NCBI GenBank assembly: GCA_951406725.2
Contig: OX597823.1
Location: forward strand, 28,520,001 to 28,584,000
Length of the DNA: 64,000 nt
Source: Octopus vulgaris
Lineage: Eukaryota
Reading direction: 5' to 3'
Positions within the stretch are counted from its first letter, which is position 1, and every line of letters starts with the position of its first letter. Below are positions 6,411 to 60,545 of this stretch, one piece after another. The notes beneath the pieces were generated by a model. The model was not told where the DNA came from. It saw nothing but the letters and a program-made list of their open reading frames with translations, and did not search any database. The translations under genes were made by a program, and so were the position numbers.

Positions 6411-7429
6411 ACACACACACACACACGTATACATATACACATACGCACAAACAATTATGCATCTATAGATGTGCTTGAAGTTTCTATGTATGTGTGTATA
6501 TAGATATGTATTTATGCATGTATATGTGAGGATAGAAGTATACGTGGTGTATGTGAATATCTGCTTGTATAAGGCCATTTCAGGTTATTTCTCCTATTAT
6601 CTCTGTGGCAACTTTCCAGAACACACAGACGCATAGACATACATGCGGGTCTCTCTCTCTCTCTCTTTGACTCTGGCTTTCTCACCCCAGCCCTCTTTCT
6701 ATCTCTTTCATTCTCAATATGATCTTCTTCTTTCCTTCTCTATGTATATATGTCTGAATCGCATCTTCTGCCTCAGTAACTAACCTCGTTATGTTTAAAC
6801 TTGTTCAATTATTATCACGAAGTACTCAATAACCAATTGATTTAATTATGTATGTGCGTGTGTGTGTATGTGTGTATGGATATATATGTACATATATTTA
6901 TAATACACACACACACATGCTTACAAATATATTTGTTCAAGCAAACAGAAACTTAAGAATAATGAATATGAATTACAAATTTTATGCTAATTATATTCAT
7001 ATCACATACCATGACTGCTAAGTATATTTCGCATAAAATATTTAAACATGATGTATTATCAAAAAAGTTATGAAATCATATTCTTTGCATTTTATCTATT
7101 GGTAACCACTAAGGACTGCAATTTTGTTCACCCGTCAATTTTTCTCTCCCCCCCCTCGTTCGCTCTCTCCATCCACCTCTCTATCTTTTCCTCTCTCTCC
7201 CACACACCCCAACACCACCGCACCACACCACACCGCACATCACCACACCACACTACACACCACCATCCCGCACACGCTAGCACTGACCACTTCCCAGCAC
7301 CCACACCATCATCCACACACCTACACATGCACACACGCACACATAAATGCCACCAGCCCCCAGCCACACGCACATATACGCTCTCGCATACACACGCACG
7401 CACACCTTCGTTTTGGGATCGACTTTCGG

Positions 7430-7530
7430 CATGATAGATCACTAGCCACTAAACCTTTTCTATTTTCTCTCCCTTTTTATTTCTGTGTTCTTTTCTGTTG
7501 AAGAGCGTAGGATCGAAACGTAAAAGACGT
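7430..7530 (+). ncRNA. Penelope-like short element with variant minimal hammerhead (family H2, core CUGUUGA)
   Basis: 7490-7527 reads ctttt CTGTTGA a gagc gtag gatc GAAA CG TA aaaga, followed by (TA)n-type repeats. Confidence 0.7.
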
Positions 7531-7548
7531 ATATATACATACATATAT

Positions 7549-20042: not shown

Positions 20043-20255
20043 AAGGCGGTGAGCTGGCGGAAACGTTAGCATGCCGGGCGAAATGCTTAGCGGTATTTCG
20101 TCTGTCTTAACGTTCTAAGTTCAAATTCCACCGAGGTCGACTTTGCCTTCCATCCTTTCGGTGTCGATTGAATAAGTACCAGTTACACACTGGGGTTGAT
20201 ATAATCGATTTAATCCCTTTGTCTATCCTTGTTTCTCCCCTCTATGTTTAGCCAC
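20043..20255 (+). mobile_element. SINE family A, tail 1 truncated and fused to an H2 fragment
   Basis: Full head and body; after tttagcc the sequence switches to the H2 element (agccactaaac...). Confidence 0.85.
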
Positions 20256-20320
20256 TAAACTTTTTTCTATTTTCTCTCACCGTTTATTTCCGTGTTCCTT
20301 TCTGTCGAAGAGCTTAGGCT
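20250..20320 (+). ncRNA. H2 element fragment with 5' half of variant hammerhead (CUGUCGA)
   Basis: cctttCTGTCGAagagcttaggct, truncated before GAAA. Confidence 0.55.
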
Positions 20321-26887: not shown

Positions 26888-27078
26888 TATAGGGAGAATT
26901 CACAAAAAAAATCAAAAGATGGAGACAGGTAGCATAGACAAGAAACAGATGCATTAGTATAACGATCAGGAAGTGAAAAAGTCTTTAACGTTTCGATCCT
27001 ACGCTCTTCCACAGAAAGGAACACAGACAGAAACAAGGAGAGAAAATAAAGAATGTGTAGTGGCTAGCGATCTATCAT
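26888..27078 (-). ncRNA. H2 element with variant hammerhead (CUGUGGA)
   Basis: Reverse complement of 26982-27018: cttt CTGTGGA a gagc gtag gatc GAAA CG TT aaaga. Embedded between TA-rich tracts. Confidence 0.7.
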
Positions 27079-27089
27079 ATATATATATA

Positions 27090-38815: not shown

Positions 38816-39110
38816 CGAGCGGGGTCTTCGTAATATGGAAAGATGTTTCATATGGAAATGTTCGTTAGATCCCGCTACATATTTAAATTCACGTACGGAA
38901 CGATTTGGATCATGTCCCCATATCACAATATACCTGTTAGGGTTTTGGGCCGCCCCTCCAACATCAAGGCTAGAATCCACATTTCTACTATGTTCTTGAA
39001 CAAACTTTCCCATACGTTTTCACTCCTATTAAATTTTTAATTTTTAACTTTTATTGTTATTTTAATTTTTGTGTTTTATATATATTTTCATTTTTTCGGT
39101 TTTTCTTTTT

Positions 39111-39306
39111 ATATAGGGAAAGTTTACGAAAATAAACATGAGACGAAGGCAGGTGGAGTACAAACAAACAAATGTATTAGTATAGCGCTCAGGAATAGAA
39201 ATAGAAAAAGTCTTTTACGTTTCGAGCCTACGCTCTTCGACAGAAAGATACACAGAAAAAAACAAGGAGAGAAACAAGGAGAGAATAAAATGCGTGGAGG
39301 AGCTAA
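39111..39306 (-). ncRNA. H2 element with best-preserved variant hammerhead (CUGUCGA)
   Basis: Reverse complement of 39211-39248: tcttt CTGTCGA a gagc gtag gctc GAAA CG TA aaaga, with perfect stems I and II. Confidence 0.75.
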
Positions 39307-39605
39307 CCAAGGCTAGAATCCGCATTTCTACTATGTTCTTGAACAAACGTTCCCATACGTTTTCACTCGTATTAAAATATATATATATATATGCATATAT
39401 TTTATATGTATATGTGTGTGAGGATATGTATGTATGTATGTATATAAGAGTGTGTGTATGTGTGTGTATGCAGGAGTGCGAATGTATGTCTGCATATATA
39501 TACCTATATGTATACGTATAAATATGTCTAAATATATATGTATTCATTTAAGCACCTACGTGTATATGAGGATGAGGTTGCGTACACACACACACACACA
39601 CACAC

Positions 39606-42229: not shown

Positions 42230-42372
42230 ACATCGAAAAATACCTTAGGAATGAGAACCTAGGTTCGAAACTTCCCCAAGACACCTGATGAAGCCTGGAG
42301 GGTCTATCAGCTGAAATGTTGTGTTAACAACAAACAAGATGAGGACAAATATTCATGAAATGTAAATAATGT
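42230..42372 (+). ncRNA. Family H1 short element with minimal hammerhead
   Basis: 42281-42324: acac CTGATGA agcctggagggtctatcagct GAAA TG TT gtgt. Confidence 0.7.
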
Positions 42373-45594: not shown

Positions 45595-45739
45595 CGCCAT
45601 GATAGATCGCTACCCACTAAGCCTTTTCTATTTTTTCTTCTTGTTGATTTCTCTGTTCCTTTCTGTGGAAGAGCGTAGTCCCGAACCGTAGAAGACTTCT
45701 TCACTTCCCGCGCATTGTCTTTTGTTATTTTGTAAATTC

Positions 45740-51751: not shown

Positions 51752-51935
51752 AACATCGAAAAATACCTTATGAATGAGAACCCAGGTTCGAAATTTCCCC
51801 ATGACACCTGATGAAGACTGGAGGGTATATCAGCTGAAACGTTGTTAAGAACAAACAAATATGAGGACAAATATCCATCAAATGTAAATAATGTAAATAA
51901 TGTACATAATTCCTCGTCTCTTAAATATAAAACTG
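51752..51935 (+). ncRNA. Family H1 short element with minimal hammerhead, fused to the SINE B tail
   Basis: 51804-51845: acac CTGATGA agactggagggtatatcagct GAAA CG TT gt; ends ttaaatataaaactg like the 41729 copy. Confidence 0.72.
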
Positions 51936-60127: not shown

Positions 60128-60183
<56 letters not shown>

Positions 60184-60545
60184 AAGTTTAGGCAAAAAGA
60201 AAAGACGAAGAGAGGTCTATGAACAATAAGTAAATGCATTAGTTTGACGCTCGGGAAAAATGAAAACAATCTTTTACGTTTCGGGCCTACGCTCTTCAAC
60301 AGAAAGGAATGGAAAAACTTGTAGATTTCAGTGGTCCATGTTTAACTGTCTGTGCTTTTCCTCTTACCACCTCTTGACAACCGATGCTGGTGTGTTCACG
60401 TTCCCGTAACTTAGCAGTGCGGCAAAAGACACCGATAGAATAAATGCTAGACTTATAAAGAATAAATCTTGGAGTTGATTCATTCGACTAAAGGCGGTAC
60501 TCCAGCATGGCCGCAGTCAAATGATTGAAACAAATAAAAGAATAA
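59811..60545 (+). mobile_element. SINE family B split at its internal microsatellite by a hairpin and an H2 element
   Basis: Head 59811-59945, tail ~60340-60545; the insert lies between. Confidence 0.75.
60181..60312 (-). ncRNA. H2 element with variant hammerhead (CUGUUGA)
   Basis: Reverse complement of 60270-60306: cttt CTGTTGA a gagc gtag gccc GAAA CG TA aaaga. Confidence 0.7.

Follow-up and report, generated by a model that had tools for sequence, protein, structure and literature searches.

The window, i.e. the whole stretch of 64,000 nucleotides of Octopus vulgaris DNA analyzed here (contig OX597823.1, positions 28,520,001 to 28,584,000), contains six copies of a repeat with a hammerhead-like motif, whose C3 is at 7495 (+), 20302 (+), 27014 (-), 39243 (-), 45663 (+) and 60302 (-) (Table 1). 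A profile search of the window retrieved the same six copies and no others. All six possess T at hammerhead position 6, within the sequence CTGT-N-GA-A-GAGC, and have T, C, G, C, G and T at N7, exactly as the first-pass annotation had it. That annotation had further proposed that all six carry the hammerhead; the T at position 6 is indeed present at each site, but the whole motif is kept only in the 39243 (-) copy, where the four pairs of the perfect stem II ascribed to it are found, and the other five are decayed. The 7495 and 27014 copies have a mismatch in stem II (GATC), as does the 60302 copy (GCCC); in the 45663 copy stem II is broken and GAAA is changed to GAAC, and the 20302 copy has lost GAAA together with the cut triplet and stem I's 3' strand. 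The strict motif pattern matched once in the window (39220-39243), against none in 100 shuffles. All six copies are truncated 3' ends, and we found no remnant of the RT or the endonuclease (EN) of this family in the window. The copy at 39111..39306, together with 77 AT-rich bases, is flanked by a 69-bp direct repeat (38965-39033 and 39308-39376, 96% identical), which may be an unusually long target duplication.

Table 1. Features of the U6 hammerhead family in the 64-kb window (PLE, Penelope-like element)
Feature	Positions	Strand	Remarks
PLE 3' end (part of pLTR)	39111..39306	-	5'-truncated; subfamily S6/S7
Minimal type-I hammerhead motif	39211..39248	-	sole intact motif of the six
Stem I, 5' strand	39244..39248	-	pairs with 39211-39215 (5-pair stem I)
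Core C3-A9	39237..39243	-	U6 = 39240; free position N7 = 39239
Unpaired A	39236	-	usual in minimal hammerheads from PLEs
Stem II, 4 pairs	39224..39235	-	39232-39235 with 39224-39227; 4-nt loop 39228-39231
G12-A15.1, palindromic stub, U16.1 and H17	39216..39223	-	stub (39217-39220) replaces stem III
U16.1 and H17	39217 and 39216	-	H17 is A17
Predicted cut	between 39216 and 39215	-	inferred from hammerhead numbering
Tail, about 100 nt	39111..39210	-	predicted cut site to element 3' end
Repeat copy	7428..7531	+	S3; U6; stem II mismatch; tail absent
Repeat copy	20244..20320	+	S3; U6; 3' half of motif missing
Repeat copy	26890..27079	-	S4; U6, G7, H17 = U; stem II mismatch
Repeat copy	45596..45716	+	S3; U6; decay in stem II and GAAA
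Repeat copy	60181..60316	-	S1 (old); U6; stem II mismatch

The intact motif exhibits the features that characterize the minimal hammerheads of PLEs, namely C3, U4 and G5, G8 and A9, G12, A13 and A14, A15.1-U16.1 and H17, as well as stems I and II, G10.1-C11.1, the unpaired base after A9 and the palindromic stub. The one missing feature is A6, which is replaced by U in all nine subfamilies described below. A6 is a near-invariant base of the hammerhead core, and the only natural exception known to us is one phage sequence with C. Pairing of U6 with A15.1 as an off-switch was considered and rejected, the predicted gain being just 0.2 kcal/mol. Comparison with Rfam gave no match at the gathering score in the window, and none of its hammerhead families matched at E<=10 over 39100-39320, which bears out the expectation that canonical searches miss the U6 motif; since a motif with a canonical core at 42285 is also sub-threshold, these models miss minimal motifs generally. 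The window also contains a second, unrelated repeat family, whose minimal hammerhead has the canonical A6 (42280-42325 and 51803-51846, both on the plus strand) and adjoins (AAT)n. This family has 7,578 matches genome-wide, with A6 in 99 of the first 100; its copies often form inverted pairs separated by a few hundred bases, and in 8 of its loci the protein of the U6 element had no match.

Followed in the 5' direction, longer copies of the U6 repeat, whose tail in most cases continues into (TA)n, pass through a 3' UTR rich in CA and reach a GIY-YIG endonuclease, with both EN and RT upstream of the motif. With the endonuclease from a copy that has A6 as the query, a protein search gave 7,148 candidates, of which 150 were scored, and we fetched the 20 copies with the longest open frames among the candidates listed. 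They contain one ORF, comprising an RT and, at its C-terminus, a GIY-YIG endonuclease, i.e. the organization of an EN+ PLE. The RT matches RVT_1 above the cut-off (E=1e-7), while the match to GIY-YIG is weak and below it (E=0.039), with YIGQT, two Cys and two His present; related proteins match PF00078 and some of them also PF01541. The frame of L098 has a C-x4-C-x2-C linker at residue 633, before the endonuclease. By its linker and domains the element appears to be a PLE of the Neptune/Nematis type, and it may be Neptune rather than Nematis. A CX2-5CxxC linker before the endonuclease is given as the mark of these two clades in PMC8557442. Two of the 20 fetched copies (L106 and L110) span the whole element and carry the U6 motif in each of their pLTRs, the distance between the two motifs being 4285 nt in one copy and 4384 nt in the other, and the hammerhead is located about 730-740 nt upstream of the ATG. 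The insertions exhibit 5' truncation, inverted 5' pieces and microsatellite targets, as is typical for PLEs. The motif is a minimal type-I hammerhead that lies at the 3' end of a PLE with an RT and a GIY-YIG endonuclease and is repeated in each of its pLTRs, and the link to Penelope suggested in the first-pass annotation is borne out. In four loci (L020, L052, L164 and L174) motif-bearing 3' ends form inverted pairs 114-265 nt apart, resembling the inverted-repeat arrangement known for Penelope insertions.

To count the letters at position 6, we searched the genome (2.80 Gb) with a 20-letter pattern in which positions 6 and 7 were open, and obtained 22,929 exact matches and none with the reversed control. 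Of the alternatives to U6, A6 and C6 were counted; A6 occurs in 316 of these matches (1.4%) and C6 in 640, in line with the claim that U6 is fixed in the family genome-wide. When positions 3-9 were all opened, the pattern had 16,446 matches, the first 100 of which contain C3 in 99, U4 in 97, G5 in 97, U6 in 96, G8 in 97 and A9 in 100 cases, with N7 distributed as T 44, A 25, C 20 and G 11. Among 88 copies found independently of the motif (by protein, tail, 5' UTR or as bystanders), U6 is present in 84 and A6 in none, and all 20 fetched copies with long ORFs, which are the youngest, have U6, i.e. the young-copy consensus is not A6. Position 6 is slightly looser than position 4 (A6 316 versus A4 167; C6 640 versus C4 265, the C4 figure being an undercount because C4 makes a CpG). 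In the old S1 group the first 100 of 669 matches comprise 77 U, 16 C, 6 A and 1 G at position 6; among matches with C17, which include the oldest subfamily, A6 occurs once in the first 100 of 121. We also considered that this genome might hold an older sister subfamily with A6, and rejected this as an artefact of choosing copies on A6, as unpicked copies are mostly U6. Small side lineages with A6 or C6 may have existed, none of them displacing U6. Four public runs, labelled as coming from four coded organisms, provide contigs with all four letters at N7 and no listed alternative at position 6, a silence that carries little weight because the same table lists no variant of H17, which does vary.

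Related proteins in metagenome contigs provided the direction of the change. In 80 such loci we found 23 sense-strand motifs with a descriptor that permitted any letter at position 6 (reversed controls gave 0), and all 23 have A6, so that U6 is derived. Stem II of some of the closest relatives is nearly identical to that of the U6 family, and in comparison with the relatives stems I and II covary, both sides being changed in 6 of 8 pairs (in a set of nine rows chosen by us, so that the shuffle counts are not probabilities). U6 also predates S0, the oldest subfamily seen. The known core variant with U3-A8 was observed in relatives from other organisms (L331:2764, L348:2660, L361:1676 and 5100).

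To follow the motif through the history of the family, we assembled 242 distinct copies from the fetched loci and the window and placed 230 of them into nine subfamilies, S0-S8, by their flanks alone, starting from seed groups set manually from a tree. The mean divergence from the consensus falls from 8.1% in S0 to about 3% in S5-S8, and a ladder topology was found in two trees, one of the nine consensuses and another of 39 endonuclease stretches linked to copies of subfamilies other than S0 and S3. Over the eight subfamily steps, 34 of the 36 motif positions, including U6, are unchanged; N7 has changed six times, taking all four letters, and H17 four times among C, A and U, never to G. The flanks underwent 0.88-0.96 changes per site over 125-143 sites. 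Under a linear ladder and equal rates, the probability of 11 unchanged core sites is between 6e-5 (Poisson) and 7.5e-4 (site level), or between 3.9e-4 and 1.3e-3 when S0 is omitted (0.71 changes per flank site). The sites that change are exactly positions 7 and 17, which are the ones left open under the hammerhead rule (PMC3088659), a coincidence expected by chance 1 time in 630. This is the pattern of purifying selection on the master elements after the A6U change, with freedom just at N7 and H17. The earlier proposal that A6U is the state of the family rather than a sign of decay is thereby upheld, the youngest copies having U6 and the rest of the motif being unchanged across subfamilies, and the core is, as it required, far more conserved between subfamilies than the flanks.

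The same data bear on the idea that a dead hammerhead has been hitch-hiking in one successful master, or that the conserved block serves as DNA, for instance as a promoter. The flanks, too, contain blocks without change (9 and 14 nt long), and many of the 242 copies were chosen with patterns that require the motif, both of which would fit this idea. The count was repeated on the 88 motif-independent copies, and their consensus is identical in S1-S8 (S0 copies being absent from this set). Hitch-hiking would also have to account for nine successive masters, in two trees, with about 0.9 changes per flank site against none at 34 of 36 motif positions, and freedom confined to N7 and H17 is not what a DNA element would exhibit. 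Both forms of the idea are largely refuted by these comparisons, and we regard them as very improbable. N7 changes more often than the average flank site (P between 3e-4 and 5e-4, or 0.02 when compared with variable flank sites only); speculatively, its turnover (39239 in the window) could mean that the rate is being tuned, or that the element evades a host repressor directed against an otherwise fixed block. Error-prone copying at a ligated junction is unsupported, H17 being uniform within S8 (30/30) and within S5 (23/23).

Analysis of the 5' ends provides information about the templates. Thirty copies extend into the 5' UTR, and in every one of them the tail is joined to it at one fixed point. 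Of these, 22 span the cut site, 21 with an intact motif upstream and one with a deletion, while the other 8 start in the tail and only one of them within 3 nt of the cut site (3 nt past it). Long-element 5' ends at the cut site were thus looked for and not found among the 30 copies anchored on the 5' UTR. The templates are thus not linear RNAs beginning at the cut, and were either uncut or re-joined. As to 5' truncation points, a count by eye among the first 100 matches listed places about 10 of the 40 distinct loci within a few bases of the cut site, where microhomology with (TA)n is a confounding factor. Several loci (L157, L168, L170 and L171, also L148, L172 and L007) are internally deleted, non-autonomous, retrozyme-like units of about 500 nt, in which the 5' UTR is joined to the pLTR and each has its own deletion. 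Four deletion derivatives of independent origin, whose periods are 481-514 nt, contain 1.25-1.75 units that are 99-100% identical, and in three of the four the deletion junction is present in both units. They fit a circle copied more than once; template jumping could give the same result.

Taken together, the sequence comparisons make it fairly probable that the U6 hammerhead still cuts the RNA of the element, slowly, as a dimer and probably with the help of the protein that the element itself encodes. A 4-nt palindrome stands in place of stem III, and a motif on its own therefore cannot close the active core. Two motifs one unit apart would pair via their palindromic stubs and swap the strands of stem I; the cut after H17 would free an RNA of unit length, likely to be re-joined as a circle. 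Using a nicked (TA)n target, the RT would begin within this circle, some 100-140 nt downstream of the cut, and could go round more than once, giving rise to pLTRs and to copies with an intact motif. The A6U change would lower the rate, and the lineage would tolerate or even prefer this, uncut or re-joined RNA being the template. Motifs with such stubs have been proposed to act as dimers with weak cutting (PMC4209133), and in our predictions the swapped dimer has an energy of -14.7 kcal/mol, compared with 2 x -7.8 for the monomers, i.e. energy alone does not favour the dimer. Changes of A6 are reported to slow hammerheads strongly. For the natural A6C variant, cleavage rates of <0.1 per min with Mg2+ and of at most 0.3 per min with Mn2+ are given (PMC3088659, PMC7151607). 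In PMC11167929, a Penelope hammerhead from the anole cleaved only with the protein of the element, a precedent for such help. The insertion of this element in vitro did not need cleavage, which is the main source of doubt, and RNA reads with ends at the site were absent. Naiads, for their part, thrive without a canonical hammerhead (PMC8557442).

Some of these observations can be read in another way, namely that the motif no longer cuts and that it was kept after A6U as a folded RNA handle, with selection on the fold and on binding; candidate roles are a binding site for the RT-EN protein and a signal for dimerisation or template jumping. Neither loop II nor the two stems vary any more than the core does, and covariation within the family is absent, which is more than a bare ribozyme needs and what a binding site would require; among the copies anchored on the 5' UTR, long elements do not begin where the cut would fall. 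In a different hammerhead, for which all mutants were scanned, CUGA changes were low in activity (PMC9901934), and the insertion without cleavage just mentioned concerns another PLE. A6 and C6 are about twice as common as A4 and C4, and S1 contains 16 C6 and 6 A6 per 100, yet A6 never took over again. What speaks against a dead handle is that it would have no evident reason to obey the hammerhead rule with free sites at exactly N7 and H17, that H17 moved four times without ever becoming G (avoidance of G has a chance of about 1 in 5), and that natural variants of position 6 retain activity. We therefore consider loss of cleavage possible and rather unlikely, and favour a hammerhead that still cuts.

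It could also be that U6 is compensated and that cutting proceeds at about the speed of canonical PLE hammerheads, via a tertiary contact of loop II, a changed metal preference or tuning by N7. The invariance of loop II, six changes at N7 above the flank mean and the switch of metal preference caused by A6C (PMC7151607) would be compatible with this, as would a stretch of 4-5 nt complementary to loop II, seen by eye 35-50 nt upstream in 7 of the 9 subfamily consensuses. This complement, however, fails in S2 and S3, and a match so short is often expected by chance; moreover, in the mutant scan no double mutant rescued changes in CUGA save the 3-8 swap (PMC9901934). Full compensation thus seems improbable to us, and slow cleavage remains the preferred reading. 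The more specific picture of an A6-less hammerhead that works in the cell, deliberately damped, gated by protein or metal, tuned through positions 7 and 17 between successive subfamilies and making circular templates for a highly successful retrotransposon lineage, is one we put forward tentatively and would rather bet against than for.

Comparison with known systems reveals both common features and differences. The family resembles the minimal hammerheads of metazoan PLEs (Cervera and De la Pena 2014, PMC4209133) in being of type I with a short stem I, an unpaired base before G10.1-C11.1, a palindromic stub and H17, in its position in the pLTR and in the predominance of solo truncated copies, but in that source the consensus is CUGANGAH, the supplement rows examined have A6 and the reported variant is U3-A8, whereas here U6 is present throughout. 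The hammerhead of phage Bcep176 (PMC3088659, PMC7151607) also has a natural change at position 6, with low but real activity; however, it is a single phage sequence with C6 in a motif that is neither minimal nor dimeric and bears no sign of long-term selection, in contrast to U6 retained through nine subfamilies and >20,000 copies. The Poseidon element PAc from Anolis (PMC11167929) likewise has a pLTR hammerhead, an internal RT start downstream of the cut and AT-rich targets, but its motif overlaps the start codon, unlike the one described here, and the passages of the paper that were consulted mention no position-6 variant. The deletion derivatives are similar to non-LTR retrozymes (PMC7229834; bioRxiv 10.64898/2026.07.22.740005), i.e. 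short non-autonomous type-I hammerhead units proposed to derive from PLEs; retrozymes there form long arrays, whereas the U6 derivatives are rare insertions of 1.25-1.75 units with the U6 core. The small hammerhead variants of Lünse, Weinberg and Breaker 2017, as summarised in PMC6765202, share the association with PLEs, the reduced stem III and cleavage as dimers.

The first-pass annotation knew of no mobile family fixed for A6U, and our literature check agrees: it found A6C and U3-A8, and in the literature searched (to which the Lünse 2017 alignments and the repeat databases did not belong) neither a described U6 hammerhead family nor a measured activity of A6U. The extractable text of the PMC3088659 supplements has 0 matches to U6 cores, and a term search in PMC8370743 (in part), PMC11014351, PMC13481778 and PMC12192606 returned nothing on U6. 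Thus, hammerheads in pLTRs, U3-A8 and a single A6C are already known, and U6 throughout a lineage appears to be new.

The persistence of U6 through nine replacements, with the other functional positions held, is a natural experiment on whether Penelope hammerheads must cut, and also on whether the protein of the element does part of the job. It comes with a dated series of N7 and H17 variants, and the A6 relatives elsewhere and the canonical A6 family in the same genome can serve as controls. Searches with a CUGANGA descriptor miss tens of thousands of motifs in this one genome. If a hammerhead without A6 does work in the cell, whole classes of core variants would be invisible to such searches, and claims that some Penelope clades are hammerhead-less would also be in doubt.
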